Assembly: GCF_020037015.1 (NCBI RefSeq)
Contig: NZ_JAIQDE010000007.1
Coordinates: 51,886 to 115,885, forward strand
DNA length: 64,000 bases
Direction: 5' to 3'
DNA from: Corallococcus sp. AS-1-6
Lineage (GTDB): Bacteria; Myxococcota; Myxococcia; Myxococcales; Myxococcaceae
Positions 1 to 59,118 of this stretch are shown here, piece after piece (position 1 is the first letter of the stretch; the number at the start of each line of letters is the position of its first letter). The position numbers were made by a program, and so were the translations under genes. Below the pieces are notes generated by a model. The model had not been told where the DNA came from. It was given only the letters and a program-made list of their open reading frames with translations, and did not search any database.

Positions 1-2
1 TG

Positions 3-344
3 TTGCTGCTGCAGAACTCCTACAAGCAGGCCTTCTCGTTGCCGGGCGGCGGCCGGCACCGCGGCGAGTCTCCGGAAGAGACGGGCGCCCGGGAGCTGCG
101 CGAGGAGGTGGGGCTGCACGTGCCGGCCTCGAGTCTGCGCGTCGTGTGCGAGCTGCGTCACACGGACGAGTTCAAGCGGGACCTGTGCCACTTCGTCGAG
201 CTGGAGCTCGCCGCGGAGCCCCGGCTCGTGCTCGACCAGCGCGAGGTGGTGTGGGCCCGGTGGCTCGACGTGGAGACCGCGCTGCGCCTGCCGCTCATGC
301 CCGTGGTGCGCGCCTACCTGGAGGATGCCGCGCGGCGGAGGTGA
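3..344 (+). CDS. Nudix hydrolase (5'-truncated at window edge)
   Basis: Perfect Nudix box GX5EX7REUXEEXGU in 'GGRHRGESPEETGARELREEVGL'. The ORF runs into the window start and stops at TGA 342-344. Confidence 0.75.
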   Translation: MLLQNSYKQAFSLPGGGRHRGESPEETGARELREEVGLHVPASSLRVVCELRHTDEFKRDLCHFVELELAAEPRLVLDQREVVWARWLDVETALRLPLMPVVRAYLEDAARRR

Positions 345-523
345 TTCGTGCCCTCTCGCCCGTCCCCCTGGCGTGGAGGCGGCCTCACCCCTGTCTTGCA
401 CCCGCCAGTTCGCCACCCCACCTTTCGGTGATTGGGATTGAACCGGGACGGAGGCGGACCGTGCTTCAGGAAGCCAGGACGACACCTTTGCAGAACGTGG
501 GGCGCGGCGTGTTGGGCTCGTTC

Positions 524-871
524 ATGGTCGGGGCCGGCGCGGGGCATCTCTCCTTCGCGCGCGGACCATTCCAGGCGCAGGTGCCGGACTGGGTGCCCAT
601 GGACAAGGACCTCGTCGTCCTGCTCTCCGGCGTGGTGGAGATCGGCCTCGGGCTGTCGCTGCTCTTCGACAAGCGCCACCGGGTTCCCCTGGGGCTGAGA
701 CTGGCGGCCTTCTTCGCGGCGGTCTTCCCCGGCAACCTGCATCAGTACGACAAGCGCCTCTCCGCGTTCGGTCTGGATACGGACCGCAAGCGCCTGGCGC
801 GGCTGTTCTTCCAGCCCGTGCTGATGGCCTGGGCGCTCTGGTCCACCGGTGCCCGGAAGGCGTTGCGGTAA
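524..871 (+). CDS. small integral membrane protein (DoxX-like?)
   Basis: ATG at 524 inside the longer GTG-initiated ORF 146..871. Hydrophobic stretches (VVLLSGVVEIGLGLSLLF, LRLAAFFAAVF, PVLMAWALW) and high GC3. The upstream part of the ORF is Arg/Pro-rich and probably not coding. Confidence 0.4.
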   Translation: MVGAGAGHLSFARGPFQAQVPDWVPMDKDLVVLLSGVVEIGLGLSLLFDKRHRVPLGLRLAAFFAAVFPGNLHQYDKRLSAFGLDTDRKRLARLFFQPVLMAWALWSTGARKALR

Positions 872-898
872 AGACAGACGCTCGCGGAGGACGGCGGA

Positions 899-1795
899 CT
901 ACTTCGCTTCGCCCATGACTTCCATGGTGTGCTTGAGCCGCTCCAGGCCCAGGCGCACCAGCGCGCCGCGCAGGTCGGGCTGGCCCAGGAAGGCCTTCCT
1001 GAACACCTCGCGCTCCAGCTTGAGCAGCGTGCAGGGCGTCACGGTGCGCACGGTGGCGGTGGCCAGCCGGCTGCGCAGCAGGGAGATCTCCCCGAACAGG
1101 GCGCCTTCCTCCAGCTTGGGATAGGCGGACTGGCGGCCGTCGCTGTGCGTGTGGAAGACCTCGCACTGGCCCCGGATGAGGACGTAGAGCGCGTCCCCTG
1201 GCTGGCCTCGGGTGAGCAGCGTCTCACCGGCGGGGACGGTGCAGGGGACGAACGAGTCTCCCAGCTCGTGCTGCACCTCCGGGGGCAGGGCGGCGATGAG
1301 CGGGTTGCTGCGCAGCGCGTCCGCGAGCAGGCGCTCCCGGGCGGCGACCTGCATCTGTTCGCCCTTCACGCCGTAGTCCTTGCCCAGCTCCCGGACGCCG
1401 GCCTGGGTGAGCTCCAGCAGCACGGCGTCCTCCACCGTCACGATGGTCGCGGTGCGCTGCGTGCCGGTGAGCAGCGCCAGCTCCCCGAAGAACTCGCCGG
1501 CCCCCAGGCGGCCGACCTCCGTGTTGCCGCCGGGTTCGCCGCCGCGAAGCACCGCGACGCGGCCCTCCAGCACCACGAACATGGAGTGTCCCGGGTCGCC
1601 CTCGCGCACCACCACCTGGCCCGCGGGCAGGTAGCGTGTGCAGACGGGCGGCGGCGCGGGGGCGCCTTCCGCCTCCGCCTGGGCGCCGGTCGCCACCGGG
1701 TGCGCCGAGGAGGCCGCGGGCGACTGTCCGGCCGCCGGAGCCGGGGCGGACGGGTGGGCGGACAGCAGGGCCTGCAGGCGCGCGAACAGGGACAT
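899..1795 (-). CDS. tandem cyclic-nucleotide-binding (cNMP/CAP effector) domain protein
   Basis: Two CAP-type cNMP-binding signatures: 'GEFFGELALLTGTQRTATIVTVEDAVLLEL' and 'GALFGEISLLRSRLATATVRTVTPCTLLKLERE'. Confidence 0.8.
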   Translation of the reverse strand: MSLFARLQALLSAHPSAPAPAAGQSPAASSAHPVATGAQAEAEGAPAPPPVCTRYLPAGQVVVREGDPGHSMFVVLEGRVAVLRGGEPGGNTEVGRLGAGEFFGELALLTGTQRTATIVTVEDAVLLELTQAGVRELGKDYGVKGEQMQVAARERLLADALRSNPLIAALPPEVQHELGDSFVPCTVPAGETLLTRGQPGDALYVLIRGQCEVFHTHSDGRQSAYPKLEEGALFGEISLLRSRLATATVRTVTPCTLLKLEREVFRKAFLGQPDLRGALVRLGLERLKHTMEVMGEAK

Positions 1796-2008
1796 GGTGC
1801 GCGAATGCTACCGGCCCGTCCTCGCGGAAACTGTGAAGCGCTTCACAGGCGGCGTGGAGGCGGCCTGAAAGACAGCCAGGCGGCCAGGAGGAGTCATTGA
1901 ACAGGGATTGACGGACGTTCGCCACGTCTGTGTTCATCCCACCCGCCACGGCGGGGTGGACGCCGGGGATGGCGTGGCCGGACCGGTACGCCCTACAGTC
2001 CCGGGCCC

Positions 2009-3004
2009 ATGGGAGACACGCTGGACGTCGTGGTGGACCTGGGGGACGTGGGAGAGACGGCCGCGGACGCCGTGCTGCTGAAGTACGCGCAGGGCTTCCA
2101 CGGGGCGGACGGCGCGGTGGCGCGCCGGCTGGAGGCAGCGGGCGTGGCCATGGACGCCTTCGACCTGCTCCCGGGGGACCACCGCTTCATCGAGTCGCGC
2201 CGGACTCTGGGCGCCCCGTGGGTGCTCTTCCTGGGCACGGTGCGCCTGAGACAGTTCGGCTACCACGAGATCCGCCAGTTCGCCGTGCGCGCGCTCCAAC
2301 TGCTGGAGCCACGGCATGAGGTGCGTCACCTCGCGTGCACGGTGCACGGTCCCAACTACGGGCTGGACGAGGACGAGGCCGTGCTGGCCCTGGTGGGTGG
2401 TTTCGTGGACGCGTTCCAGCGGGGCAGCGGCCCTCGCGACCTGGAGCGCATCACGGTGGTGGAGCTGAACCCCAAGCGGGTGGAGCGGCTGCGAAAGGCA
2501 TTGGCGCTGGGGCTGGGGCTCACGCCGGGAGTGGAGCCGCTGATGGGGGCCACGGGCTTCCGCGTGCGGCGGACGTCGCGCTTCGTCCAGGCGCCGTCCA
2601 TGGCTTCCGCGGGCGCGAACTCCCAAGAGAAGCCCCATGCGTTCGTGGCGATGCCCTTCGCGCAGGAGCTGGAGGACACCTACCACTACGGCATCCTTCA
2701 CCCCGTGAAGGCGGCGGGGCTCCTGTGCGAGCGGGTGGACCAGGCCGTCTTCGACGGGCCCATCATCCAGCGCATCCGGGACCGCATCGACACCGCGAAG
2801 GTCGTCATCGCGGACCTGTCGCTGGCGAACCCCAATGTCTATCTGGAGGTGGGCTATGCCTGGGGACGCGGCAAGCCCACCCTGATGCTGGTGCGCGACG
2901 TGAAGGAATTGCGCTTCGACGTGTCCAGCTACCGGTGCCTCGTCTACCGGAACATCCGGCACCTGGAGGAGCTGCTCACGCAGGAGTTGAAGCGCATCCC
3001 CTGA
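2009..3004 (+). CDS. two-domain protein: N-terminal macro-like domain + C-terminal TIR-like / nucleoside 2-deoxyribosyltransferase-like domain
   Basis: N-term 'VVVDLGDVGETAADAVLLKYAQGFHGADGAVARRLEAAG' resembles the macro-domain motif GDIT..DAIVNAAN..LGGGGVDGAIHRAAG. C-term 'AFVAMPFAQELEDTYHYGI...VVIADLSLANPNVYLEVGYAWGRGKPTLML' matches the FxAMPF ... E.GyA.gxGKP signature of the NDT/TIR-like fold. GC3 bias is good. Confidence 0.5.
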   Translation: MGDTLDVVVDLGDVGETAADAVLLKYAQGFHGADGAVARRLEAAGVAMDAFDLLPGDHRFIESRRTLGAPWVLFLGTVRLRQFGYHEIRQFAVRALQLLEPRHEVRHLACTVHGPNYGLDEDEAVLALVGGFVDAFQRGSGPRDLERITVVELNPKRVERLRKALALGLGLTPGVEPLMGATGFRVRRTSRFVQAPSMASAGANSQEKPHAFVAMPFAQELEDTYHYGILHPVKAAGLLCERVDQAVFDGPIIQRIRDRIDTAKVVIADLSLANPNVYLEVGYAWGRGKPTLMLVRDVKELRFDVSSYRCLVYRNIRHLEELLTQELKRIP

Positions 3005-3017
3005 GCGTGTGGCGCGG

Positions 3018-4187
3018 TCAGTAGGGGGCGCAGGTGACGCCCTCGCAGTTGCCGGCGCCGTTGTTCCGCGCGACGTTGCCGCCCCCGTCGAAGGCGGTAG
3101 GCGCGTGGATGCCCCAGCCCGTGTTGCCCAGGGCCACGTTGCCCAGCACCGTGGGCGTACTGGCCGGGAGGACGCGGAGGCCGTCACCGTTGTTCCGGAG
3201 GAACCGGTTGGCGCGGACGATGCCGGTCTGCGGGAGGCTGACGATGGGCGTGTCTTCCAGGGTCAGCCCGCCCGCATTGTCCCAGAAGGTGTTGCCCTGG
3301 ATGTAGACCTGGAATGAGCCGGCTGTCAGCCCATTGTCATTGCCCACGATCCAGTTGTTGATCATGTCGAGCTGGACCACGTTCCAGATGGGCGTCTCCG
3401 TGGGAGCGAACGACGCGTTGTTCGCGATGAGCGTGTTCTCGAAGCGGAACCGTTCGCAGATATCCCGGCCCCCGATGGGCACGGTCGTGGAAGCGACGGC
3501 GTCATTCCGCGCGAAGACGCTCGACCGGACGCGGGCACTGCCGGCGAAGCAGTAGATGCCGACTTTGTTCCCCGTGAAGGTTGAATCGAGGACGTCGGCC
3601 GCATGGGTATCCAGGTAGATGCCGAGGCGGTTGTTCTCGAAGTGGCTCGACCTCACGTCGAACGAACCGAGGGATGCGTCGATCTCGCTTCCGAGCCCGA
3701 CGTCATTGCCGATGAACCGCGAATTCGTGACGAGGAAGGAGGTGGTGGAGAAGAAGTTGTAGATGGCGGTGCCGTTGACCGCGAACGTGAGCTTGTGCAC
3801 CCGCAGGGAGTCGACTCCCTCGGTCTGGATGCCTCTTGCGAACCCGCGAATCGTGCCGTTGCGCACCATGCTGGTGCCGGTGACCACGATGCCCAGGGTG
3901 TCTTGCCGGACCGGACTCGAGCGGCGCACGGTGTGGCCACCCAGGTCGAGGACGATGCCATCCCCTTCGATGCGGAGTGCGGGCTCGTCCGTGCCCGGGC
4001 AGGAGAGGTCATGCGTGAGCTTCGTGTGCTGGGTGATGACGTCGCCACACTGGACGTCGCATTCGACCGGCTTCGCTTGCTGGAGCCGGGCGTCGAGCGC
4101 CTCCCTGTCCGACGCGAGCGCCGCGGGTGCTCCCAGGAACAATGCGCCGATGGCCGCCGTGACAGAAAAGCCCTTTGCCTTATGCAT
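3018..4187 (-). CDS. secreted right-handed parallel beta-helix repeat protein
   Basis: N-terminal signal peptide MHKAKGFSVTAAIGALFLGAPAALA. Repeated short N/G/T-rich beta-helix-like segments (e.g. FIGNDVGLG, FTGNKVGIY, IVGNDNGL, VLGNVALGNTGWGI). Confidence 0.6.
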   Translation of the reverse strand: MHKAKGFSVTAAIGALFLGAPAALASDREALDARLQQAKPVECDVQCGDVITQHTKLTHDLSCPGTDEPALRIEGDGIVLDLGGHTVRRSSPVRQDTLGIVVTGTSMVRNGTIRGFARGIQTEGVDSLRVHKLTFAVNGTAIYNFFSTTSFLVTNSRFIGNDVGLGSEIDASLGSFDVRSSHFENNRLGIYLDTHAADVLDSTFTGNKVGIYCFAGSARVRSSVFARNDAVASTTVPIGGRDICERFRFENTLIANNASFAPTETPIWNVVQLDMINNWIVGNDNGLTAGSFQVYIQGNTFWDNAGGLTLEDTPIVSLPQTGIVRANRFLRNNGDGLRVLPASTPTVLGNVALGNTGWGIHAPTAFDGGGNVARNNGAGNCEGVTCAPY

Positions 4188-4324
4188 GCCGCCTCCCCGC
4201 CGGAAGTCGTTCCGGCGACCGGCGAAATGCTAGACATGGCACCGTCAGCGGCATCCCCTCTGCCAGTGGCAGCGCGCGGACCAGTGGATGACAACCTGGC
4301 TGCACGCTGGGGCGGTACGGCCTG

Positions 4325-5419
4325 TCACCAGCCCCGCGCTGTGACCTCCCATGTCGCCACCTGCGTGTCACCCCGCACGACGTGCAGTCGCGGATGCTGG
4401 GGGACGGAAACACAGACATGGTTGGGCACCACACGCACCCGCTCGCCGATGCGCGGGCGCCACGTCGTGCCGGACACGTCCAAGAGGCCGTGCTCCTCCG
4501 ACAGGTTCTTCACCACGACCTCCGGCCGGTCCAGCACGACGCCATAGCCCGGCGCCAGCCCTTCCTCCTTCACCAGCGCCTTGGCTCCCGCGTCGATGAC
4601 CACCTGGCCCGGCACGGCCGTGCTCACGACGGTGGCCAGTACGGAGTAGGCGCACTCCGTCCAATCACACGCGCCGATGACCGCGGCGTTGCGGTCGTTC
4701 AGCGCGTTGAGGCCGGGGCGGATCTCCGTGAGGCCCTTCACCGTATGGGATTGCCAGAGCGTCGGCGTGGAGCCGCCACTGACCACCTCCGGCGGCAGAC
4801 CCGCGGCCTTCAACGCGTCCACGAACGTCGTGACCGCATCGGACTGCGCCTGCATCACGGCGGGCAGCTCCGCCTGCGGGACGCGGATGTGGCCCGCGTA
4901 GAAGGTCAGCCCGCGAAACGCAACCCCAGACATGGACGCCGCCGCGCGCGCCAGGGCCAAGGCTTCATCCGGCGTGCGCAGCCCCACGCGGCGCATGCCC
5001 AGGTCCACCTCCACGAGCACGCCCACGGTGCGCCCGGCATCCCGCGCCGCTCGCGCCAGCCCCTCCAGCACTTCAAGGGAGTCGAGCGCCACGGTGAGCC
5101 TCATGCGCGAGGGCAGGGCCATCAGCCGCGCCAGCTTGCGCGCGCCCACCGGCGGATACGCGAGCAACACGTCGTCGGACACGGACGCCATGACCTCGGC
5201 TTCCAGGAGGGTGGCCACCGTGACGCCGGAGGCTCCCGCCGCGACCTGCATCGCGCCCAGCTCCGCCGTCTTGTGCGTCTTCGTGTGGGGACGCCAGCGC
5301 AGGCCGTGCTCGCGCGCATAGGTCGCGACGCGCTGGAGGTTCCGCTCCACGCGGTCCAGGTCCACGATGGCGGCGGGCGTGTCGAGGGAGTCGAAGAGGG
5401 GCGAGGACATACGGCGCAT
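4325..5419 (-). CDS. PLP-dependent alanine-racemase-domain enzyme (D-serine dehydratase / D-threonine aldolase-like)
   Basis: N-term 'AAIVDLDRVERNLQRVATYAREHGLRWRPHTKTHKTAELGA' is typical of the alanine racemase N-terminal (PLP-lysine) domain of the DSD1/D-TA family. Confidence 0.7.
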   Translation of the reverse strand: MRRMSSPLFDSLDTPAAIVDLDRVERNLQRVATYAREHGLRWRPHTKTHKTAELGAMQVAAGASGVTVATLLEAEVMASVSDDVLLAYPPVGARKLARLMALPSRMRLTVALDSLEVLEGLARAARDAGRTVGVLVEVDLGMRRVGLRTPDEALALARAAASMSGVAFRGLTFYAGHIRVPQAELPAVMQAQSDAVTTFVDALKAAGLPPEVVSGGSTPTLWQSHTVKGLTEIRPGLNALNDRNAAVIGACDWTECAYSVLATVVSTAVPGQVVIDAGAKALVKEEGLAPGYGVVLDRPEVVVKNLSEEHGLLDVSGTTWRPRIGERVRVVPNHVCVSVPQHPRLHVVRGDTQVATWEVTARGW

Positions 5420-5475
5420 GCTGGCACTGCGCTCCTCGCCCCGTCATCCGAATCGCCGGCCTTGCGTTCGCGGGG

Positions 5476-5898
5476 CTACGCCGCCGGTTCGAAGCTCACC
5501 GTGGGCCGCTGCCAGCTCCAGCCGCCGCCCTTCAACGCTTCCGTCGCCTGCGCATCCAGCACGCGCAGCGCAGCGAGCACGTCCGCGGGCGGGCGGGGCG
5601 CTCCCGGCGCGCTCTCCACCTCGAAGCGCGGGGGGATGCCGGCGGCGTCACGGCCGCCCATCACCACGCGGATGCGGCAGTTCTGCGGGGACAGCTCCGT
5701 CTCCCCGGACCAGGACACGTCCTGGACGAAGAGGTCCACCGCGCCCGGGGCCTTCTGCCCGCGCAGCCGCGTCACCACCGCGTCCAGCGACCCCTTCGCG
5801 CGCGCGTTCCGCTTCTTGCCAAGGCGGGTGAGCGACCACCAGACCAGGCCGCCCGCGACGATGGGCGACAGAACGAAGTAGGGGATGAGCGGGCTCAT
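5476..5898 (-). CDS. hypothetical membrane-anchored protein
   Basis: ORF with an N-terminal hydrophobic segment MSPLIPYFVLSPIVAGGLVWWSL. No recognisable domain. Confidence 0.3.
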   Translation of the reverse strand: MSPLIPYFVLSPIVAGGLVWWSLTRLGKKRNARAKGSLDAVVTRLRGQKAPGAVDLFVQDVSWSGETELSPQNCRIRVVMGGRDAAGIPPRFEVESAPGAPRPPADVLAALRVLDAQATEALKGGGWSWQRPTVSFEPAA

Positions 5899-5986
5899 GG
5901 GGCGGCAGGCTGCCACGAAACGCGGAAGAAGAAACGCCCGTCTCCAGGCCTCGGGGCTCCGGAGACGGGCGTGAAGAGAAGCACGG

Positions 5987-8167
5987 CTACTGCGGCGAGG
6001 GCGCGGAGACCTTCTTCGTCGCGTTGGGCTTGTACGTCATGCCCAGCTCGTTGAAGACGAAGGAGTAGACGTCCACCTCCTCCTCGATGCGCGCGGACAG
6101 CGGCGTGCCCATGCCGTGGCCCGTCTCCGCGTTGGCGCGCAGCAGGATGGGCTTGGGGGACGCCGACGCCGCCTGCATCCGGGCCACCATCTTGCGCGAG
6201 TGGAACGGATCCACGCGCGGGTCATTGGCCCCGGAGGTGAAGAGCACCGGCGGGTACTTCGTCCCGTCCTTCACGCGGTGCACCGGCGAATAGCCATACA
6301 GCGCCTTGAACTGCTCCGGGTCCTTCACCGAGCCGTACTCCGTGACGTTGAACTGGCCGTTGGGCGTCAGCTCCGTGCGCAGCATGTCGTAGATGCCCAC
6401 GCGCGCCACCACCGCGCCGTACTGCTCCGGGTGCTGCGTCAGGGCCGCGCCCATCAGCAGGCCGCCGTTGCTGCCGCCCTGGATGGCCAGCTTCTTCGGC
6501 TGCGTGTACTTCTGGGCCACCAGCAGCTTCGCGCACGCGTAGAAGTCGTCGAACACGTTCTGCTTGTTCGTGAGCGAGCCGGCCTTGTGCCACTCCTCGC
6601 CGAACTCGGAACCGCCGCGCAGGTTCGCCACCGCGAACACGCCGCCCTGCTCCAGCCACATGCCCGTCAGCGGGCTGTAGCCCGGGTTGATGGACACGTT
6701 GAAGCCGCCGTAGCCGGTGAGCAGCGTGGGGTTGTTCCCGTTCAGCTTCGTGCCCTTCTTCTTCAGGATGGTGAGCGGCACCTTGGTGCCGTCCTTCGAA
6801 GTGGCCTCCGTGCGCACCACCTCCACGTCGCTCATGTCGATGGGCGCCGTGCGCGCCAGCGCCGTCTTCGTGAGCTTGTTGTCCGCCGCCGAGTAGCGGA
6901 ACCACGCGGCCGGCTGGGTGAAGCTCCCGTTGACGATGAGCAGGTCGTCCGCGCCCTGGCGCACCAGGCCGCCCACCGCCGACACCGGCAGCGTGGGCAC
7001 CAGCCCCAGCTCCTTGCCCGTCAGGTCCACCATGCGCAACTGCGAGGGGCCCCCCAACTGCTCCAGCAGGTACAGGCGGCTCTTCGTCGGCACCACGGCC
7101 TGCACCGTCGCCTTGCCCTCGGGGACGACCACGGTCGCCTTGTCCAGCGTGGGCGTGGCCAGCGGCAGGCGCAGCACCTTGCCGCGCGACGCGTCCTTGC
7201 GGCTGAGCAGGTACGCCGCGCCGTCGCTGCCGAAGCGCGCCGCCACCACCTTGTCCGCGTACTTCGCCACCTGCGTCCACGTGCCCTTGGGGCCGTGCAG
7301 GTACAGGTCGAACTCGCCGCCGTCGCCGTTGGCCACGCGCGCGAAGGTGTACTGACCGTCGTCGCTGGACTCCAGGTCCGTCATCGCGATGCGCGGGAAG
7401 TCCTTGCCCAGCGCGTACGTGTCCTTCTCCGTGGGCGTGCCCAGCGCGTGGAAGTACACCTGCTGGTACACCTCGCGGTCCACCGGTGGGCGCTCCTCGC
7501 CGCGCGGATAGCGCGTGTAGAAGAAGCCCGTGCCCTGCGCGTTCCACGCCAGGCTGCCGCCCGCCGTGCCGCCGTTGACGCGGGGGACCAGCTCGTTGGG
7601 CATCGCCTTCGCGGACGCCACGTCCCACACCGTCACGTCACCGCTCTCCGTGCCGCCCTTGGACATGGACACGGCGACCTTCTTGCCGTCGTGCGACAAC
7701 TGGAACCAGTCGATGGTCGTCTTGCCGGACGTGTCCACGACCGTGGGGTCCACCAGCACGCGCTCCTTCGACGTGTCGTCCAGCGAACCCACCACGATGA
7801 GCGTGGGCTGCTGCTTGGGCGGCTGGAACTTCAGCCCCAGGAGCGTGCCGCCCTGTTCGTCCAGGCCGCCGTAGGAGGGCGACTTCCAGGACAGGAGCTC
7901 CGTGATGCGCTGGCGCAGGGGCTCGCGGCCCGGGAGCTTGTCCAGGTACGCGCGCGTGAACGCGTTCTGCGCGTCGGTCCACTGCTGCACCTGGGGGTCG
8001 GTCGCGGACTCCATCCACTGGTACGGGTCCGTCACGGTGGTGCCGTGGTAGGTGGCCTCCACGGGCTTCTTCTCCGCGGCGGCGGGCTTCGCGGGCGCCT
8101 TGCCCGCCGCTCCGGACACGAGCGGCAACAGCAGCGCGGCGGTCGTCACTGCGATTCTGGACTTCAT
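5987..8167 (-). CDS. prolyl oligopeptidase (S9A family serine peptidase), secreted
   Basis: Signal peptide MKSRIAVTTAALLLPLVSGAAG. Active-site serine motif 'GGSNGGLL'. The long N-terminal beta-propeller plus C-terminal alpha/beta hydrolase layout is typical of prolyl endopeptidases. Confidence 0.9.
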   Translation of the reverse strand: MKSRIAVTTAALLLPLVSGAAGKAPAKPAAAEKKPVEATYHGTTVTDPYQWMESATDPQVQQWTDAQNAFTRAYLDKLPGREPLRQRITELLSWKSPSYGGLDEQGGTLLGLKFQPPKQQPTLIVVGSLDDTSKERVLVDPTVVDTSGKTTIDWFQLSHDGKKVAVSMSKGGTESGDVTVWDVASAKAMPNELVPRVNGGTAGGSLAWNAQGTGFFYTRYPRGEERPPVDREVYQQVYFHALGTPTEKDTYALGKDFPRIAMTDLESSDDGQYTFARVANGDGGEFDLYLHGPKGTWTQVAKYADKVVAARFGSDGAAYLLSRKDASRGKVLRLPLATPTLDKATVVVPEGKATVQAVVPTKSRLYLLEQLGGPSQLRMVDLTGKELGLVPTLPVSAVGGLVRQGADDLLIVNGSFTQPAAWFRYSAADNKLTKTALARTAPIDMSDVEVVRTEATSKDGTKVPLTILKKKGTKLNGNNPTLLTGYGGFNVSINPGYSPLTGMWLEQGGVFAVANLRGGSEFGEEWHKAGSLTNKQNVFDDFYACAKLLVAQKYTQPKKLAIQGGSNGGLLMGAALTQHPEQYGAVVARVGIYDMLRTELTPNGQFNVTEYGSVKDPEQFKALYGYSPVHRVKDGTKYPPVLFTSGANDPRVDPFHSRKMVARMQAASASPKPILLRANAETGHGMGTPLSARIEEEVDVYSFVFNELGMTYKPNATKKVSAPSPQ

Positions 8168-8204
8168 GGTTCACCTCGCATGCGGGTGGTTCCCTGCGGG
8201 ACGC

Positions 8205-9692
8205 TCAGCGCAGGGGCAGCTCCACCAGGGCGGTGGAGAAGGTGTCGAAGGTCTCGTTGGCGTTGGGCTTGGTGCCCTCGTCCATGTTGCCGAGCATCAG
8301 CGCGAAGACGACGCGCGGGTGCTCCGTGTCGTTCGGCCGCTCCGCCACGCCCACGAAGCACTTCTGGCCCGTGAGCGTGCCCGTCTTCGCGCGGAGGCGG
8401 CCCGCGGTGGACGCCGTCGTCTTGCGGCCCGCCAGCGTCCCGTCCACGCCCAGCACCGGCAGGCTGTCCACCAGCGCGGCGCCATACGGCTCCTGGAGGC
8501 TGGTGAGCAGCACGCGCGCCATGCCCCGGGGCGTGGCCAGGTTGTAGCGGGACAGGCCGCTGCCATCCACCGGACGCAGGTCCTTGGTGGGCACGCCCCG
8601 GCGCGCCAGCTCCGCCACCAGGGCCGTGCGCAGCGCGGTGTAGCCCTCCTGGCCGGTGCGCTCGCGGGCGAAGCGCATGCCCAGCCGCTCCGCGTACAGG
8701 TTGAGGCTCTCCTTGTTGGTCGCGCGCACCAGCTCCGACAGGGGCGGGCTGATCAGCTCCACCAGCGGTGACGGCATGGGGGGCAGGGGCGGGGTGGGGG
8801 CCTCCAGGGACAGCGGCAGCCGCGTGACTCCGTGCCGCGCCAGCGCGTCGTCCACGCACGCGGCGAAGAGGGCCTCCGGCGCGTCCACGGACAGCTTCAC
8901 GGCGGCGGACTGCGGGCAGGGCCCGCCCGTGGGGGAACGCCACGTGCAGCGCACGCCGCCGCCTCCGCGCACGCAGGCCAGGTTCGCGCGCTCGGCGTTG
9001 ACGTCCACGTTCACCACCGCGGACAGCGTGGCGAAGGCGGGGGTCCACTGCACGGAGGGCGCGTCCGCGCAGGTGGCGCCGGGGGCGCGCGCCAGCGCCA
9101 GGTCCACCACGTTCTCGCGGAAGACGAAGGGCGTGGGCGGCGCGCTGTAGGCGTACGCCGCGTCATCCCAGGCCCAGCCCGGCCCCATGCCGCCGTCCAG
9201 GCCGTCCGTGCCGGAGATGCGCACGTTGCCGCGCCACTGGTGGATGCCGCGCGCCTGGAAGGCCTCCGCGATGCGGTCGCACGCGAGCGCCGTCTCCGGG
9301 AAGCGCCACGAGCCCAGCGACGGGTCCCCGGACGCCTGCGCCACCACGTCGCCCAGGAACAGGCCTCCTGTCTGCGAGCCCTCCAGGAACACCGGCGTCG
9401 TGAAGCGGAAGTCCGCCCCCAGCGCGGACAGCGCGGCGGAGGTGGACACCACCTTCATGGTGGACGCGGGCAGAAGCCGCACGTTCTCGCGGTGGGTGAA
9501 GAGGGGCTCGCCGGTGCGCGCGTCCACCACGTACGCGCCCGCGAGCGCGCCGTCCGCCTCCAGGGTCTCCAGCAGGGCCTTCGTCACCCCGGGCAGGGTG
9601 TCGCGCGGGGCGCCGCCCGGCGTGGCGGGCGTGTGGGTGCAGGCGGACAGGAGGAGGGCAACGACGCTGGCGGGCAGGAGGGCGCGGCGCAT
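8205..9692 (-). CDS. dacB: D-alanyl-D-alanine carboxypeptidase/endopeptidase (PBP4, peptidase S13)
   Basis: SxxK motif 'STMKV' and KTG motif 'KTGTLTG'. Lipoprotein-like signal MRRALLPASVVALLLSAC, with start at the ATG whose reverse complement is at 9690-9692. Confidence 0.85.
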   Translation of the reverse strand: MRRALLPASVVALLLSACTHTPATPGGAPRDTLPGVTKALLETLEADGALAGAYVVDARTGEPLFTHRENVRLLPASTMKVVSTSAALSALGADFRFTTPVFLEGSQTGGLFLGDVVAQASGDPSLGSWRFPETALACDRIAEAFQARGIHQWRGNVRISGTDGLDGGMGPGWAWDDAAYAYSAPPTPFVFRENVVDLALARAPGATCADAPSVQWTPAFATLSAVVNVDVNAERANLACVRGGGGVRCTWRSPTGGPCPQSAAVKLSVDAPEALFAACVDDALARHGVTRLPLSLEAPTPPLPPMPSPLVELISPPLSELVRATNKESLNLYAERLGMRFARERTGQEGYTALRTALVAELARRGVPTKDLRPVDGSGLSRYNLATPRGMARVLLTSLQEPYGAALVDSLPVLGVDGTLAGRKTTASTAGRLRAKTGTLTGQKCFVGVAERPNDTEHPRVVFALMLGNMDEGTKPNANETFDTFSTALVELPLR

Positions 9693-9883
9693 GGCGGCGG
9701 CCACCGTATGTCGCGTGCCAGGGAGTGTCATGGATTCCCGCCAGCGGGGTGGGGCGGAAGAAGTGCACGGTTGGACGGCGCCCGGGCAAACGGCTTCTGG
9801 CGCGGCCTATTCCCGGCGCTTCGCGTCCAGCCACACCGAGTGCCTTGACGCGGCGTCACAGGCCCCCCATCCTGCCGCGCCCC

Positions 9884-10534
9884 ATGCCTGTCCTACGTGG
9901 TGCCGTGACCTTTTCGCGCTTCCGGACCGAGCCGGCCAAGGATGCGCCGTCCGACGTCAAGCGCTGGATGACCAAGGGACTCAAGTCCCATGCGTTCGAG
10001 CCCATCGACCGCCGCTCCGAGGAGGAGCGCGCCGCGGGGTTTGTCGAGCTGGAGAACCCGGAGTCCTCCGAGTTCGCCACCGGCAACCTCTTCTATGGCG
10101 AGTACGCCCTCTTCGCCTTCCGCATCGACACGCTGAAGGTGCCCGCGTCGATGATGAAGTCGGAGCTGGACAAGTGGTCCGCCGCCTTCGCCAAGGAGAA
10201 CGGCCGGCCGCCCGCGCGCGCGGAGAAGAACAAGCAGCGCGCGGAGCTCAAGCAGCTCCTGCGTCAGCGCGCGGTGCCGCGCACCAGCACGCTGGACGTG
10301 ACGTGGAACCTGAAGACGCACACGGTGCAGGTCTGGGCCGCGTCGCGCAAGACGGTGGATGAGATCTGCGTGGCGCTGGAAGGCGCCCTGGCGGTGAAGG
10401 TGATTGGCATCACGCCCGCGTCCATGGCGCAGCGCGCGGGCATCGACGAGAAGGCCCTGGGCCCCACGGCGGAGCTCATTGGCATGGACCTGCCGGCGAC
10501 GGCTTCGGTGGAGGGCGCCCATGGCGAGGCGTGA
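9884..10534 (+). CDS. RdgC-like recombination-associated protein, N-terminal part
   Basis: Block similarity to E. coli RdgC: VTFSRFR ~ MVYRLSR, LKSHAFEP ~ LASMAFTP, and a lysine/glutamate-rich helix. Ends at TGA 10532-10534 and overlaps the next ORF in another frame. Confidence 0.4.
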   Translation: MPVLRGAVTFSRFRTEPAKDAPSDVKRWMTKGLKSHAFEPIDRRSEEERAAGFVELENPESSEFATGNLFYGEYALFAFRIDTLKVPASMMKSELDKWSAAFAKENGRPPARAEKNKQRAELKQLLRQRAVPRTSTLDVTWNLKTHTVQVWAASRKTVDEICVALEGALAVKVIGITPASMAQRAGIDEKALGPTAELIGMDLPATASVEGAHGEA

Positions 10535-11210
10535 GCAGGCGAGGGAAGAGGCGGCGTTCGCGCGGGGCGATGTCGGCGTGGACGGCGCCGCCACGGAAGA
10601 GGAGAAGGACGAAGCCGAAGTCGAAAAAGGCAAGGCGCGCGAACAGCTCCTGCGCGGCCGGGCCTACCTGGGCCGCGAGTTCATGACGTGGCTGTTGTGG
10701 CGCTCGGAGTCGGGCGACCCGCTGGTCGAGCACGACGGCGCGGGCGTCGTCGTCCTCTTCCTGGGCAAGGTGGTGCTGCGGGGCGTGGCGGGCGACGTCA
10801 CGGAGATGAGCGCCAAGGGAACGCTGGCGCCGTATTCGGAGAACGTGCGCCACTCGCTGGACCGGGGCCTGCTGGTATCGCAGGCGCGGCTGCGCCTGTC
10901 GCACGGCGAGCGCGAGTACGAAGTCACGCTGGATTCGGAGTTCCTGGACATCCGCGCCGCCAAGCTGCCCGCGCTCATGACGGAGGAAGAGGATGATCAG
11001 CTCTCCGAGCGTCTGGAGTTGACCGAGCAGCTCTCCGCCATCGTGGACGCGCTGGTGCAGGACTTCCTGGCCGTGCGCGCCGGCCGCGCCTGGAGCAAGC
11101 AGGTGGTGCCCGCGATGAAGGAATGGATGAAGGGCGAGGAGAAGGGGAGCGACCTGCTCTCCAAGGCCGCCCGAGCCCGGGGCCGTGACGCCCGCGCCGC
11201 CCGGGGCTGA
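10521..11210 (+). CDS. RdgC-like protein, C-terminal part (second frame); its 3' end carries the island attachment repeat
   Basis: ATG 10521 overlaps the previous stop. 'REFMTWLLWRSESGDP' ~ RdgC 'ELTLTEWVRSGSAAQG', and the C-terminal helix LELTEQLSAIVDALVQDFL ~ FILMTGELAALIQNLIEGL. The last ~25 codons are duplicated at 29608-29681. Confidence 0.4.
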   Translation: MARREQAREEAAFARGDVGVDGAATEEEKDEAEVEKGKAREQLLRGRAYLGREFMTWLLWRSESGDPLVEHDGAGVVVLFLGKVVLRGVAGDVTEMSAKGTLAPYSENVRHSLDRGLLVSQARLRLSHGEREYEVTLDSEFLDIRAAKLPALMTEEEDDQLSERLELTEQLSAIVDALVQDFLAVRAGRAWSKQVVPAMKEWMKGEEKGSDLLSKAARARGRDARAARG

Positions 11211-11213
11211 GCG
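11131..11213. repeat. left copy of imperfect direct repeat (putative attL) covering the 3' end and stop of the rdgC-like gene
   Basis: 'agggcgaggagaaggggagcgacctgctctccaaggccgcccgagcccggggccgtgacgcccg(cgcgccgcc)cggggctga' compared with 29608-29681. Identical except gag/cac (2 nt) and a 9-nt indel. Confidence 0.8.
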
Positions 11214-11467: not shown

Positions 11468-14400
11468 ATGGACGTTTTCGCGCTGCGGGACAGCGTCATC
11501 GGCGAGTACGAGCGGTTCGCCACATCATTCACCACGATTCGCGCCGCGGACCTGCGCACGAAGCTCAAGGCCTTCTATGCGGCAGGGACCTACTGGCCGG
11601 AGCCCCTGATCCAGCTGAACCCGCACTACCAGGAAGGCCGCACGCAGGCTGAACTGGTCAAGGGCGATGTCCTGCACCCGAAGTGCCCCGACCTGTTCCG
11701 CTCGACTGCGGGCCATCCTCTTCCGCTGCACAAGCACCAGGAACTCGCGGCGATCCTGGCCACGACGGGGGCGAGCTACGTCGTCACCACCGGCACAGGC
11801 TCAGGTAAATCCCTGTGCTTCTTCGTGCCCATCGTCAGCGCCGTGCTGAAGGAGCGTGACGCCGGGGCTCCTCGCAGAACACGCGCCATCATCATCTACC
11901 CGATGAACGCCCTGGCCAACTCGCAGCTCGAGGAACTTGAGAAGTATCTGGGCAAGTCCGGCGATGCGCCGGTCACCTACGCTCGCTATACCGGCACGGA
12001 AAAGCAGCAGGAGCGGGAAGCCATTGCGCGCAATCCACCCGATATCCTCCTGACGAACTTCATGATGCTTGAGCTGCTGATGACGCGGCAGGATCCCGTC
12101 GATCGGCAGGTGATGGCGAACTGCGAGGGGTTGCGCTTTCTCGTCCTCGATGAACTCCATACCTACCGTGGACGCCAGGGGGCGGATGTGGCGCTCCTCG
12201 TTCGACGCGTTCGGGAACGCCTCGCTCCGCAAGGGCTTCAGTGCATCGGTACGTCAGCCACGATGGCGAGCGCGGACTCCCTGCAGCAGGGCAGGAGTAC
12301 CAGCTCCGTCGTGAGCCGAGTCGCCTCACAGCTCTTCGGCGCGCAGGTGCCGGAGACGCACGTCATCACCGAGTGGCTGCGTCGCCAGACGACGGGCCCC
12401 CATCAGGTGGCAGCGCTGATGCCCTCACTCGCGAAGGCGCTCGAGCAGCCACTCGCGCGTGACGTGCGTGACTCGGTGTTGACCTCCCATCCGCTCTCCA
12501 TCTGGGTGGAGACCCGCCTTGGCATTACAGTCAACCCCGACGACCAGACATGGCGCCGCGCGAGGCCCCTCTCCGTCAGCGCCGCGGTCCAGCTCCTGGC
12601 CCAGGAGTCAGGCTGCCCGGAGAGCCTCTGTCGCGAGCGCCTGCGCCACTTCCTCCTCCTGAGCAGTCAGCCGGAGAAGGATCGTCGCGGCGACAAGACG
12701 GGGGCGACGAATCCCTTCTTCGCCTTCAAACTCCACCAGTTCATCTCAGGTGCCTCGAACGCATACGCGACCCTTGAGCCGCCTGGCGCCCGGGCAGTAA
12801 CGGTCGATGCGCAGAAGTTCCTCCCTGGGGCGGAGCAGAAGCGGCTCTATGCGGTCCATTTCTGCCGCCAGTGCGGCCATGAGTATCACCCGGTAAAGCT
12901 CAAGACGGACGGGCTGGCGCTCGAGTTCATCGACCGCTCCATCGATGATGCTCCTCCTGGCCGTGACGACGACGAGGAAGAGGAGACGTCCGCCGCCGAA
13001 AATGAAGAAGGAGAGCGGTTCGGATTCCTGACACGGGATGCGACGGAAGACCCCGAGTGGGACTTCAAGGGCAAGGATGAGACCTATCCAGAGTCGTGGC
13101 TGGATGGCAAGAACGCGCTCAAGGCTTCTCGTCGGCATCGGAGGCTTGAGCTCCATCGCGTCACGCCTACCGGCAAGACGGGATCCGAAGGGCAGCCCAT
13201 GTGGTTCCTCCCCGGCCGCTTCGGCTTCTGCGTCGTGTGCAAGGAGGTCCATGGGGGTACCTCGCGCGACCGCACGCGGCTGGCATCGCTGACAGCGGAA
13301 GGGCGCAGCTCCGCGACGACGGTGTTGACGTTGAGCTCCCTGCGATGGATGCACGGAGCTGGATCGGGCCTGGATGTATTTACCCGGAAGATGCTCGGCT
13401 TCTCTGATAACCGGCAGGACGCCGCGCTACAGGCAGGCCATTTCAACGACTTCCTCTTCGTCTGCATCTTGCGCGCGGGCTTTCTCGGTGCGCTCGCAGC
13501 CGCAGGCGAAAAGGGCCTCTCGAGCGCGGAACTCGGGGAGGCGCAGCAGCGCGCGCTGGGCTTCCATCGCCTCGACGACAGAGGGTTGCGCGGCGAATGG
13601 ATGAAGGATCCTGAAGCGAAGCCTTTCGCCCGGCTGTCGGCGGAGAAGTCCCTGCGCGAGGTCCTCGCCTACCGTGTGTGGTTCGACCAACGGCGCGGCT
13701 GGCGGTACACCAATCCCAACCTCGAGCAGCTCCGCCTGGTTGAAGTCGAATACGAGCACCTGGATGAGATCGTCTCGGACGAGTCTGCCTTCGCCCATGC
13801 GCCGGCCTTGCTCCGCGAGGCCACGCCCGACGTGCGCCGAGGCGTCTACCGTGTGCTGTTTGATCACATGCGTCAGTGGATGGCCGTCGAATCGTCGGTG
13901 CTGAACGCCACCTCGGTGGAGCAGCTTCGGGCCAATGCATTCTCCCAGCTCCGGACTCCCTGGGCCTTCGGGAGCGACGAGAAGACGCGGCCCTCCCGCT
14001 GGCTGATGGTGTCCGCACCATCCCGCAAAGGGCTGACCATGCGCGACGAGGACCTCGTCGTACGTGGTGGCAGCCGCAGCGCGTTGGGAAAGGCGCTCCG
14101 GTCGAGCCGGCATTGGGGGGGAGATGCGCGTGCCCGCACGCAGAGCGCCGCCGACCTGGAGCAGATCATCCAGGTACTGCTCGTCGCCGCCCGTGGCCTG
14201 GTCATTGAAGAGCCTACGCCCTTCGATGGGCACATGGGTTGGCGGCTGAAGGACGCCCACGTGCGTTTCAAGCTGGGCAGCGGGGAGGACCCGGAACGGC
14301 CTGATCGGATCAACCGCTTTTTCCGCGACCTCTACCGGTCCCTGGCGAAGCTGCTCGCATCCCCCTCGCACCCGCTGTTCGGGTTCGAAGCGCGCGAACA

Positions 14401-16726: not shown

Positions 16727-16747
16727 CCGGCGGGGTACCACCACACC

Positions 16748-19531
16748 ATGAACACCATCACCTGGAGCCCGGGGAGCCTCGTACGGGCTCGTGGCCGGGA
16801 GTGGATCGTCCTCAACGGCGGCAGTGCGGAGACCCTCCGGGTCCGGCCGGTGGCTGGCAGCGAGGACGACGCCATCCTCATTCACCTCCCGCTGGAGGCG
16901 GAGCCGGTGTCGGACGCCGCCTTCCCCCCGCCGACGCTGGCCCAGCGCGCGAGCCAGGATGGGGCGCAGTTGCTGCGTGACGCGCTCACGCTCTCGATGC
17001 GACGGGGCGCGGGTCCCTTCCGCGGCTTCGGGCAGATCTCCATCCAGCCCCGCGCCTACCAGCTCGTGCCGCTGATGATGGCCTTGCGGCAGGAGACGGT
17101 GCGCCTGCTGGTGGCTGACGACGTTGGTGTTGGCAAGACCATCGAGGCGGCGCTCATCGTCCGCGAACTGCTGGACCGCGGCGACGTGGACCGGTTCAGC
17201 GTGCTGTGTCCGCCACACCTCGTGGAGCAGTGGGTGCATGAGCTGGACGTGGGCTTCCACCTGCGTGCGGTCGCCGTCACGGCGGCCAATGCGTCGCGCC
17301 TGGAAAAGGCAATCCCCCAGACGACGAGCCTCTTCGAGGTACATCCCTTCACCGTCGTCAGCCTCGACTACATCAAGAGCCAGAACCGCCGGGACGAGTT
17401 CCTCCGCAGTTGCCCCGGCTTCGTCATCGTGGACGAGGCGCACACCTGCGCGGCGACGGGTCAGGGACGGCATCAGCGCTATGAGCTTCTGCGCGCCCTC
17501 TCGCAGCGCGCGGACCGTCACCTCGTGCTGTTGACGGCCACGCCCCACAGCGGTGACGAGGCGGGCTTCTACCGGCTGCTCGGCTTGCTCGACCCTGCGT
17601 TCCAACGGCTGGAAGTGGTGCAGGGGGACGAGCGCAACGCATTGCGCGAGCGCCTGGCCCGGCACTTCGTGCAGCGGCGACGCCCGGATCTCGACGAGTG
17701 GCGAGAGGGAGAACTCTTCCCGGACCGGCAGACCCGGGAGCTGACGTACACCCTCTCTGGCGCCTGGGAGCGCTTCTTCGACGCGGTGCTCGACTACTGC
17801 GCCACCGTCATCGAGTCGGCCAGCGGGGATGCCCGGCGCCAGCGCCTGAATTTCTGGGGCACGCTGGCCCTCATGCGCTGCGTGGCGTCGAGCCCACGGG
17901 CCGCGGTGCAGGCCCTGCGGACCCACGCGACGCCAGGAGAAGAGGCTGAAGCGGAGCTGGAGGAGCGGCTCTTCGACGGAGGCGACGACGCCCTCCCGGA
18001 GGATGATCTTGAGCCCCCGGCGGCGACTGGAGACGCGGACCTCCAGAAGCTCATCGCCCAGGCCGAGGAGCTCAGCGGGCAGTCGGGAGATCCGAAGCTC
18101 AAGACCCTCGTGGGGCATGTGAAGGAGCTGCTCGGGGAGGACTTCGCGCCCGTCGTCTTCTGCCGCTACATCGCCACGGCGCATTACCTGGGCGCCCACC
18201 TCGCGAAGCAGTTCCCGGACGTGATGATCAAGGTGGTGACGGGCGAGCTGACGCAGGACGAGCGCAGGGAGGCCGTGGCGGCGCTGCGGGCTGAGGAAGG
18301 CAAGGTCCTCCTCATCGCGACCGATTGCCTCTCCGAGGGCGTCAACCTGCAGGAGTCCTTCAACGCGGTCATCCACTACGACCTCTCGTGGAATCCGATG
18401 CGGCATGAGCAGCGGGAAGGCCGCGTGGACCGCTACCTCCAGAGCCGGCCAGTCGTCCGGGCGACGCTCCTCTACGGTCAGAACAACCCCGTCGATGGCG
18501 CGGTGCTCGAGGTCATCCTGCGAAAGGCAGAGCGGATCCGCCGGGAACTCGGGGTGCCGGTGCCGCTCCCCGACGAGGGCCACTCGTTGACGCAGACGCT
18601 GATGCGCGCGGTGCTGCTGAAGCATCGGAAGCCTGGCAGACAGGCGATGCTCGACTTCGGGGGAGACGCGGCGGCCACCATCGAGGCCACGTGGCAGAGC
18701 GCGGCCGAACGGGCCCAGAAGAACCGCACCGTCTTCGCGCAGAAGCGCCTGCGGCCCGGCGACGTCCTGCCCGAGTACGAGCGCGTGCGTCAGGCCATCG
18801 GCGGGCGGGAGGACGTCGAGCGCTTCGTCTCACGGGCCATGGCCCGGCTTGGCGCCGCGCCGGAGCGCCTCAAGCGCGGCGTGCGTCTACAGCTCGCCGC
18901 GCTTCCGGCCGAGGTTCGCGAGCGGCTGGAGAATGAAGGGCTGGCAGGCTCGCTGCTGGTGGATTTCGAGCCTCCCGGTGGCGAGCACCGCCGACTTGTT
19001 CAGCGGGCCCATCCCCTCGTGGCGGTGCTGGCCGAGACCTTGCTCGAGCGGACCCTGACCTCCGCCGGAGACGGCACCTCGACCGACCCTTCCGTCCTGG
19101 GCCGCCTCGGGTGCTGGGAGTCCTCCGGCGTCACGGAGCGCACGACGGTGGTGCTCCTGCATCCGCGTCACCAGCTCACCACGGTGAAGGGCTCGCGGAC
19201 CCACACGCTGCTGGTCGAGGAGTCGACGGCCGTCTCATGGGGCGCGAGCGGCCCGCCTCGTGAAGGGGCGGAGGCGTTGGCGCTCCTTGCGCTCCCTCCC
19301 GCAGGGGATCCCCCTGCGCACGTGCGTGACCGCGAGCTCACCCGGGCGCTCGCGTTGGTGGAGTCGTCGCGAGAGCAGCTCGCCGCCGTGGCGGAGGGCC
19401 GGGCCCAGGCCCTGCTCGCGGACCACCGGCGCGTCCGGGAGGCGGCAGGCGACCGGGGAAGCTACTCGGTCAAGGCGCTGCTCCCGGTGGATGTCATCGG
19501 TGTCTTCGTGCTGCTCCCGGAGGTGAAGTGA
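16748..19531 (+). CDS. SNF2-family helicase (DISARM DrmD-like)
   Basis: '[19 protein letters not shown]' (motif I), '[12 protein letters not shown]' (DEAH), '[11 protein letters not shown]' (motif III), and the helicase-C region '[14 protein letters not shown] ... [11 protein letters not shown]'. Starts 22 nt after the helicase stop. Confidence 0.85.
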
Positions 19532-38979: not shown

Positions 38980-38994
38980 GGGGCCAAAGGCGCG

Positions 38995-39825: not shown

Positions 39826-39912
39826 CCTCGCTCAATCGCGCGGCGCCGCAATGCCCTGAGCGGCCGGACCGGGGTGGATCCGGCCGCTGTTCAACGGAGT
39901 CTCAGGGGGACT

Positions 39913-42258: not shown

Positions 42259-42417
42259 CGCACCTTCCTGGAGGAATGAGTGGAAGGTGCGATCTATCAG
42301 GTCGGGAGGATGAAGACAGACATGTTGTGAGGGGTTGCGGTGTCTATCCAAACCCGAACGGGTCTGTGAGTACCCTGCGGAGAGGAGCCGCGTGGGCTCC
42401 CCTCGTCCCTGCGGGGG

Positions 42418-43308: not shown

Positions 43309-43455
43309 GTTTTTCCTCGGCTTGTGGCTGATGCGGGGGAAGCAGGACCGTAGCGGCTCCCGGGGTTGAGCGCACTGGAGACATTTCGGGACTGTGATGG
43401 GCGTTTCGTCGCGAAGACCGCCAGTGGACGTTGTTTGGTCTACGCTGCGGCCCTC

Positions 43456-59084: not shown

Positions 59085-59118
59085 GTGCCGTGGCTCCGTG
59101 GGCCTGACGCCGTCCGCG

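Follow-up and report, generated by a model that had tools for sequence, protein, structure and literature searches.

The locus and its two-domain gene

We analysed a 64,000-nt stretch of Corallococcus sp. AS-1-6 (contig NZ_JAIQDE010000007.1, positions 51,886 to 115,885; the window), and the subject of this report is the gene at 2009..3004 near its left end, which we call the target. The gene was delimited from the list of open reading frames (ORFs) and from full-length homologues, and it is the orthologue of MXAN_3123 in Myxococcus xanthus. Its product joins a macro-like N-terminal domain to a C-terminal domain of the DrHyd type, which resembles nucleoside 2-deoxyribosyltransferases (NDT) and TIR domains. 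The parts of the gene are as follows.

2009..3004, plus strand: target gene, 331 amino acids and a stop codon.
2009..2524, plus strand: N-terminal macro-fold domain, residues 1-172, with the signature GD(13)...AD(20)V.LK(25)YAQ.F.G(32)AD(34); T(111).H(113)G...G(118)LD(120)E(121).E(123).
2525..2623, plus strand: beta-hairpin at residues 175-187, from secondary structure, and low-confidence linker at residues 192-205, with pLDDT below 50 at 192-197 and 201-205.
2603..2614, plus strand: linker motif A199-S-A-G202.
2624..3001, plus strand: C-terminal DrHyd/NDT-TIR-like Rossmannoid domain, residues 206-331, with the beta1 motif AF(212)VAMPF and the catalytic-type motif N(274)PNVYLE(280)VGYAWG.
2642..2644, plus strand: codon of Phe212, the beta1 position where NDT and DNPH1 have a Tyr that enforces 2'-deoxy specificity (equivalence by motif).
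2846..2848, plus strand: codon of Glu280, the predicted catalytic nucleophile or oxocarbenium-stabilising residue, aligned to the Glu of MilB and of DNPH1.

The target is a real gene, as homologues spanning its full length, at 43-99% identity, are found in 334 species-level genomes. These carry the unfused form and are chiefly Myxococcota, but Acidobacteriota, Binatia, Gemmatimonadota, Chloroflexota, Bacteroidota, Armatimonadota and one Methanosarcina metagenome-assembled genome (MAG) are also represented. The closest comparison is with C. coralloides KYC2213, whose homologue is 99% identical; MXAN_3123 is 69% identical. A scan of 1750-3100 for promoters and terminators found none.

The first-pass annotation, made from the sequence alone, had proposed a macro-like N-terminus and an NDT/TIR-like C-terminus, and the ORFs and peptides that it quoted are present as described. 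To look at the domains, we used an AlphaFold2 model built on an alignment of 37 homologues, all of them Myxococcota sequences. The model is confident (pLDDT 86.5, pTM 0.82) and has two domains separated by the low-confidence linker at residues 192-205. At the level of the fold the two-domain guess was right, and the Foldseek comparison that the first-pass annotation had suggested, which we made against the PDB and against viral models, agrees with both halves of it. By sequence we consider the resemblance real but weak. Our case for the domains leans mostly on structure, because the score of the target against Nuc_deoxyrib_tr falls below the Pfam threshold and Macro was not among its Pfam matches at E<=1. 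The combination of folds fits NAD+, ADP-ribose (ADPr) or nucleotide chemistry, as had been suggested. We also agree that the combination has no characterised counterpart: no characterised system matches it, and in our literature search we did not find this macro-like plus NDT-like dyad described.

The A-S-A-G motif of the linker (residues 199-202) is nearly invariant across Myxococcota despite the disorder of the model there (pLDDT below 50). It could serve as a hinge or as a site of docking or processing.

The N-terminal macro-like domain

In the model, the N-terminal domain has the three-layer alpha/beta/alpha arrangement of a macro domain, and both the order of its secondary structure elements and the positions of its motifs agree with that fold. 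Sequence searches did not place it in a macro subclass. No Pfam or NCBIfam model matched the domain (Pfam Macro, PF01661, was absent from the target's matches at E<=1), and neither phmmer nor hmmsearch found a macro chain in the PDB. With hhalign, the alignments to Af1521 and TARG1 were weak. We therefore rejected any assignment to a subclass by sequence.

The weak alignment to Af1521 (probability 12.7%) puts Asp13 on Asp20 of Af1521, deletes the NAAN motif and replaces the GGG loop with G32-A-D34. The motifs with which macro domains bind ADPr comprise an adenine-contacting Asp, a loop 1 of the form N-x(6)-GGG and a loop 2 of the form G-[IV]-[FY]-G. In the target, the second loop reads T111-x-H113-G114-x-x-x-G118-L-D120-E121-x-E123. 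When we looked at 128 diverse representatives of the family, D120 was invariant, and D20, K25, A27, G32, D34, H113, G114, G118, E121 and E123 were each at least 90% conserved. The "GLD" of this loop recalls the catalytic Asp125 motif of TARG1; the alignment between the two is not significant, so we treat this as a lead.

The target thus differs from the canonical macro domains (Af1521, MacroD, YmdB, macroH2A, the PARP9/14 macros and TARG1) in having no Pfam Macro match at E<=1, in the deleted NAAN and the altered GGG loop, and in a loop 2 that is one residue longer and is followed by the invariant D-E-x-E. It differs as well from the N-domain of M17 leucine aminopeptidases (Peptidase_M17_N, macro clan). 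The match to that domain spans only residues 47-102 of the target, and the aminopeptidase domains are joined to a metallopeptidase domain and do not have the conserved charged loop residues. On the model, we consider the N-terminal domain to be a genuine macro fold with a conserved, non-canonical acidic pocket that is a putative ligand site.

The C-terminal DrHyd/NDT-TIR-like domain

Pfam Nuc_deoxyrib_tr (PF05014) matches residues 252-301 of the target at 3e-5 with 24.5 bits, which is below the gathering threshold of 28.8 bits. Some relatives pass that threshold (P0137 with 29.5 and P0139 with 30.2 bits). The PADLOC model PDLC00733, "Effector, TIR", matches residues 245-321 at 2.2e-13, yet Pfam TIR and CAP12-PCTIR_TIR were not among the target's matches at E<=1. 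Against the PDB, the single sequence matched the CMP hydrolase MilB at E=0.1, and a profile of the C-domain family found MilB at E=0.005, followed by Rcl/DNPH1. Foldseek against viral models (BFVD) gave a MilB-like phage protein as the top match for this domain and a protein annotated Cap12/PycTIR as the second.

The domain has the DrHyd fold and the catalytic-type Glu of the E-x-G motif after beta4. Glu280 (NPNVYL-E-VGYAWG) aligns with the Glu of 'HVEIGWA' in MilB, where the mutant PDB entry 4ohb has Ala. In an hhalign alignment to human DNPH1 (probability 44%), Glu280 falls on a Glu that we count as residue 104. The human DNPH1 and Af1521 sequences used in our alignments were verified, DNPH1 against the PDB. 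Glu280 is invariant in the 37 Myxococcota sequences, and so are F212, E241, R242, D244, N274 and N276.

A Tyr that is hydrogen-bonded to the catalytic Glu goes with 2'-deoxy specificity in NDT and DNPH1, and in TIR domains that are NADases this residue is usually Phe or Ala (PMC11204291). The target has an invariant Phe there, in AF(212)VAMPF, if we go by equivalence of the motif without superposition. Because Phe212 stands in for the Tyr that specifies deoxy substrates, the substrate is most likely a ribonucleotide. The Phe argues for NAD+, nicotinamide mononucleotide or a nucleoside monophosphate, and away from a true deoxyribosyltransferase. Similarity to the CMP N-glycosidases MilB and BlsM and to DNPH1 (Rcl) is marginal, as the scores above indicate, and unlike those enzymes the target is fused to a macro-fold domain. 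In the sequence, the loop S-x-R-G-G, which binds the 5'-phosphate in DNPH1, is not visible after beta1 of the target.

The wider family

We took a census of the family with the N-terminal domain alone as the query and scanned 128 representatives with Pfam. The search returned 747 clusters at 50% identity, 527 of them at E≤1e-10. Many representatives carry additional N-terminal domains: TIR_2 in 38 (about 30%), EAD1 in 3, EAD7 in 3, and bDLD1, CHAT, HSP70 and HTH in 1 each. At the C-terminal end, Nuc_deoxyrib_tr matched 52 of the 128, mostly under the Pfam threshold, and PDLC00733 matched 82. The TIR-fused clade is chiefly from Chloroflexota/Anaerolineae and its members are annotated "TIR domain-containing protein". 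One family profile (A2) that we ran against the PDB detected nothing but the N-terminal TIR columns of these fused relatives. Papers from the Aravind laboratory describe DrHyd, TIR and Macro as effector or NAD-ADPr-processing domains, and give EADs and Death-like domains the part of adaptors in the conflict systems that multicellular prokaryotes have (PMC7159879, PMC8195603, PMC9503650).

Glu280 is kept in 50 of the 56 stand-alone macro+NDT representatives and in 15 of the 35 with N-terminal extensions (Fisher p=3e-6, phylogeny ignored), and 13 of those 35 have Gln at the position. N274, N276, D244, D304 and F217 decay in the extended proteins as well, while the macro-loop signature is kept in both classes. 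This pattern is consistent with catalysis by the C-domain in the stand-alone proteins, the target among them, and with a constraint that is relaxed where a TIR domain is present. Since the EAD-fused P0181 and P0191 have lost the Glu too, the part that stays constant throughout the family is the macro-like domain.

Further architectures that we saw are EAD1-, EAD7- and CHAT-macro-NDT, HSP70-macro and HTH_3-macro (P0181, P0191, P0192, P0201, P0246, P0130). The HSP70-macro and HTH_3-macro cases may be truncated ORFs.

In four of six Chloroflexota loci, the gene for the TIR, macro-like and NDT-like protein is followed, with a 4-bp overlap, by a gene for a PlsC-type acyltransferase of about 200 residues (PF01553, HTSNWD motif). 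These genes are at the following positions.

L006 7380..7982: PlsC-type acyltransferase gene.
L007 7416..8027: PlsC-type acyltransferase gene.
L008 7404..7994: PlsC-type acyltransferase gene.
L089 4416..5057: PlsC-type acyltransferase gene.

With tblastn we found no match to the acyltransferase in the window or in 80 loci of the unfused form, and we rejected it as a universal partner. In the Chloroflexota the two genes form a conserved pair, and acyl-ADPr chemistry is one speculation on what it does.

Neighbouring genes

The features around the target are listed here; those without another source were identified from the ORF list and Pfam.

3..344, plus strand: Nudix hydrolase, truncated at its 5' end by the window edge (Pfam NUDIX 7.5e-12).
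~524..871, plus strand: small membrane ORF, DoxX-like (weak match).
899..1795, minus strand: tandem protein of 298 residues binding cyclic nucleoside monophosphates (cNMP), with two cNMP_binding domains (Pfam 1.9e-46) and no DNA-binding domain.
1832..1847, no strand: perfect CRP/FNR-type palindrome TGTGAAGCGCTTCACA, the sole TGTGA-N6-TCACA match in 64 kb (0.04 expected).
3018..4187, minus strand: secreted beta-helix/NosD-like protein.
4325..5419, minus strand: D-Ser-dehydratase-like enzyme.
5987..8167, minus strand: prolyl oligopeptidase.

The first-pass annotation had grouped the target with the Nudix and cNMP genes. It identified both of these genes properly, but the Nudix gene is not adjacent to the target, since the DoxX-like ORF and the divergently transcribed cNMP gene lie in between. 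It had also proposed that the three genes form a module for signalling or defence based on NAD+/ADPr, in which the cNMP protein might, for instance, sense isomers of cyclic ADP-ribose, and had named conservation of the neighbourhood as a test of the idea. We surveyed the neighbourhood with tblastn within ±10 kb of the target gene at 80 loci from species-representative genomes. A Nudix homologue is present at 2 of the 80, and an orthologue of the cNMP gene at 11, exclusively in Corallococcus. At 4 of those 11 the distance between the cNMP gene and the target is greater by about 0.7 kb; in C. llansteffanensis (L005/L017) a DLH-hydrolase gene makes up the difference, and the wider gap recurs at three further loci. 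The D-Ser-dehydratase-like orthologue was found at 25 of the 80 loci and the S9 peptidase orthologue at 24, all of them in Myxococcaceae.

Annotated contigs gave the same picture. M. xanthus (MXAN_3123) and two Corallococcus genomes have a common block downstream only, made of the D-Ser-dehydratase-like gene and the S9 and S13 peptidases, and an Archangium and a Kofleriaceae MAG have wholly different neighbours. De novo clustering of the neighbour ORFs at the 80 loci yielded lineage-specific synteny blocks and no partner across lineages, and we found no conserved partner in Myxococcus, Archangium, Kofleriaceae, Acidobacteriota, Chloroflexota and others. The Nudix and DoxX-like pair (3..871) was seen at 2 of the 80 related loci, and the beta-helix/NosD-like gene (3018..4187) at the same number. 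The pair and the NosD-like gene are recent lineage-specific insertions that flank a syntenic Myxococcaceae backbone.

The palindrome deserves a separate word. It sits between the two divergent genes, in an intergenic region of 213 bp, and is 37 nt upstream of where the minus-strand cNMP gene starts. Across Corallococcus its half-sites are kept and its spacer is variable, and its distance of about 37 nt to the cNMP start is maintained even at loci where the target is about 0.7 kb more remote. Because the spacing to the cNMP start holds where the target is further away, we assigned the palindrome to the promoter region of the cNMP gene, and it is likely an operator for a CRP-family regulator encoded elsewhere. 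We rejected it as a shared regulator of the target, as it travels with the cNMP gene and is absent upstream of the target elsewhere.

We consider the three-gene module very improbable. It does have points in its favour: in this strain no more than 2 kb separates the genes, the intergenic region with the CRP-type site is shared by the cNMP gene and the target, and the cNMP domains are similar to those with which Pycsar TIR effectors sense their signal. It fails because the neighbourhood is not conserved: the counts in the 80 loci, the five annotated contigs and the de novo clustering of neighbours all go against it. The interposed DLH-hydrolase gene and the attachment of the palindrome to the cNMP gene speak against it too, and the PADLOC matches of the cNMP protein span the generic cNMP domain only. 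As for a tie between the Nudix gene and ADPr pyrophosphatases, no specific link emerged; the fragment has a weak likeness to MutT/NudB-type enzymes. We judged that the Nudix and cNMP genes are not functional partners of the target, and their neighbourhood is unfit for inferring what the target protein does.

Backbone, island and the rest of the window

In Myxococcota, the target is a vertically inherited, stand-alone backbone (core) gene and not an island gene. The window belongs to C. coralloides. Its positions 1..11211 are 99.15% identical to strain KYC2213, and the similarity ends at 11211. The G+C content is about 70% at the left end of the window and drops to 0.656 at 11-12 kb.

Beyond this boundary, at 11468..23529, we observed a DISARM-like defence cluster of three ORFs, which encode the following proteins.

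DEAD helicase of 1752 residues with MZB/DUF1998.
SNF2/ResIII helicase of 927 residues.
Eco57I/MmeI-type N6-methylase of 1333 residues.

The cluster looks like a strain-specific island, because the similarity to KYC2213 stops at 11211 and the N-terminus of the DEAD helicase had no match in any of the 80 related loci. Further along, at 30815..33427 on the plus strand, there is a bacterial protein of 870 residues that is homologous to the Major Vault Protein of eukaryotes (MVP_shoulder 5.8e-45; Vault repeats down to 1.9e-31). The regions 25753..29576, 38104..44796 and 58687..61911 hold very long ORFs (444-1391 residues) with no Pfam match at 1e-5, and these may be spurious high-GC ORFs, wrong-strand reads or unannotated families.

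Proposed mechanism and alternatives

The reading that we tentatively prefer, at a little under even confidence, is that the target is a stand-alone, ligand-controlled N-glycosidase of ribonucleotides or NAD+, in which the macro-like domain would bind an adenine- or ADPr-type molecule and the DrHyd/TIR-like domain would cleave the N-glycosidic bond by way of Glu280. Our analyses show the folds, the conserved motifs, the domain architectures and the absence of conserved neighbours; we infer which substrate and ligand the protein has and in which direction its domains are coupled. The enzyme would be self-contained, with two domains and no dedicated operon partner. Glu280 would attack or stabilise C1' of the ribose and the base would be released. 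NAD(P)+ is the leading substrate candidate, as for TIR effectors of the PycTIR/Cap12 type, and the alternative is a ribonucleoside monophosphate of the kind that MilB cleaves. The two ligand loops of the N-domain, with their charged set of K25, D34, H113, D120, E121 and E123, would hold an adenine-containing small molecule of the ADPr type, and the domain would either gate the glycosidase or process its product. The cassette is fixed as a vertically inherited backbone gene in Myxococcota, while in other phyla it is joined to the immune or cell-death domains TIR, EAD1/EAD7, Death-like and CHAT.

Several results weigh against this reading. In the N-domain, the hhalign alignment to Af1521 pairs only residues 3-42 with 10-52 (40 residues, E=0.0023) at the low probability given above, and that to TARG1 has a probability of 0.4%, which is not significant. 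The NAAN motif is missing and the GGG diphosphate loop is swapped for G-A-D, where the Asp argues against canonical binding of the ADPr diphosphate. The best sequence match of the N-domain profile in the PDB was the macro-like N-domain of leucine aminopeptidase (E=0.02, residues 47-102), a domain that is not known to bind ADPr. At the C-terminal end, EAD1-P0181 has Gly and EAD7-P0191 has Leu in place of the Glu, and because neither has another enzyme domain, the C-domain appears not to be always catalytic in the family. The statistic on loss of the Glu does not account for phylogenetic non-independence. A defence effector would not usually show such strong vertical conservation (57-70% identity across Myxococcota families) or such fixed synteny, and our literature search found no paper mentioning MXAN_3123.

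Part of this evidence would suit a housekeeping enzyme of nucleotide or ADPr salvage with no role in conflict or signalling in myxobacteria, which we find rather doubtful although it deserves serious consideration. It would have two catalytic domains in series: a macro-like hydrolase using K25, D120, E121 and E123 would act on O-acyl-ADPr or ADPr-1''-P, and N-glycosidic cleavage of the kind done by MilB and DNPH1 would follow. The gene is inherited vertically, occupies a single locus that is syntenic in Myxococcaceae, and evolves slowly; it belongs to the conserved backbone and not to the strain-specific island, which begins at about 11.2 kb. The nearest solved relatives of the C-domain, in both sequence and structure, are metabolic N-glycosidases (MilB and DNPH1), and the invariant charged residues of the macro loops resemble an active site, with the "GLD" lead to TARG1 mentioned above. 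However, that lead comes without a significant alignment, the canonical catalytic motifs of macro domains are absent, and the DNPH1-type phosphate loop is not seen in the target. Fusions of the cassette to domains that are hallmarks of conflict systems (TIR, EAD, Death-like and CHAT) also occur repeatedly, and the C-domain matches the defence model "Effector, TIR" at 2e-13. That the protein is a scaffold or sensor and no enzyme seems to us distinctly improbable. Here an oligomerisation domain like the N-domain of leucine aminopeptidase would be combined with a nucleotide-binding, non-catalytic Rossmannoid domain, and the protein would assemble or regulate others. F212, E241, R242, D244, N274, N276 and E280 are invariant or nearly so in the stand-alone clade of the target, and such a constellation is hard to explain without catalysis or very specific binding of a ligand.

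The glycosidase reading can be compared with known sensor-effector systems. PycTIR (Pycsar), Cap12/TIR-STING and TIR-SAVED (CBASS) likewise have a ligand-binding domain and a TIR-type catalytic domain with a conserved Glu in one polypeptide; effectors of the TIR type usually become active by assembly. The putative sensor of the target is instead a macro fold and not a cNMP-binding, SAVED or STING domain, and its gene is vertically inherited and not island-borne. We found no adjacent signal generator of the kind that Thoeris, Pycsar and CBASS have (ThsB TIR, PycC cyclase or CD-NTase); the genes within 9 kb of the target are the Nudix, DoxX-like, cNMP-binding, beta-helix and D-Ser-dehydratase-like genes and the S9 and S13 peptidases. 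The effector ThsA of type II Thoeris is described as a macro-domain protein that senses His-ADPR (bioRxiv 10.1101/2024.01.03.573942, as summarised in 10.64898/2025.12.03.692087; PMC11204291). There the macro fold is the part of the effector that senses a small molecule, as we propose for the target, but the output in Thoeris is a membrane-spanning module and in the target the NDT/TIR-like domain. Thoeris also depends on a ThsB TIR gene next to that of the effector, and there is none here; the macro loops of the target are non-canonical. On the reading that we prefer, the target follows the logic of sensor-plus-TIR-like effectors with an undescribed macro-fold family and an output of the DrHyd type.

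A bolder version, which we regard as unlikely, is that the cassette is a previously undescribed and widespread sensor-effector module of bacterial immune and programmed-cell-death networks built on TIR, EAD and Death domains. Myxobacteria would then have fixed a TIR-less core copy that answers in trans to an ADPr-derived messenger from other TIR proteins and, once activated, runs down NAD+ or a pool of nucleotides, for instance when phage infect or when cells lyse during development. The remodelled macro pocket would serve a non-canonical ligand.

If the mechanism that we prefer is true, the target would define a macro-fold family with a remodelled acidic ligand pocket. Macro-fold sensing with a DrHyd/TIR-like N-glycosidase output would then join the ligand-gated NADase effectors (PycTIR, TIR-SAVED, TIR-STING and ThsA). 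The fusions to TIR, EAD, Death-like and CHAT domains in Chloroflexota and elsewhere are natural comparisons for finding out which domain senses and which one kills, and MXAN_3123 of M. xanthus is a genetically tractable orthologue. It would also mean that an "immune-type" cassette has been kept as a conserved chromosomal gene in social bacteria that lyse during development.

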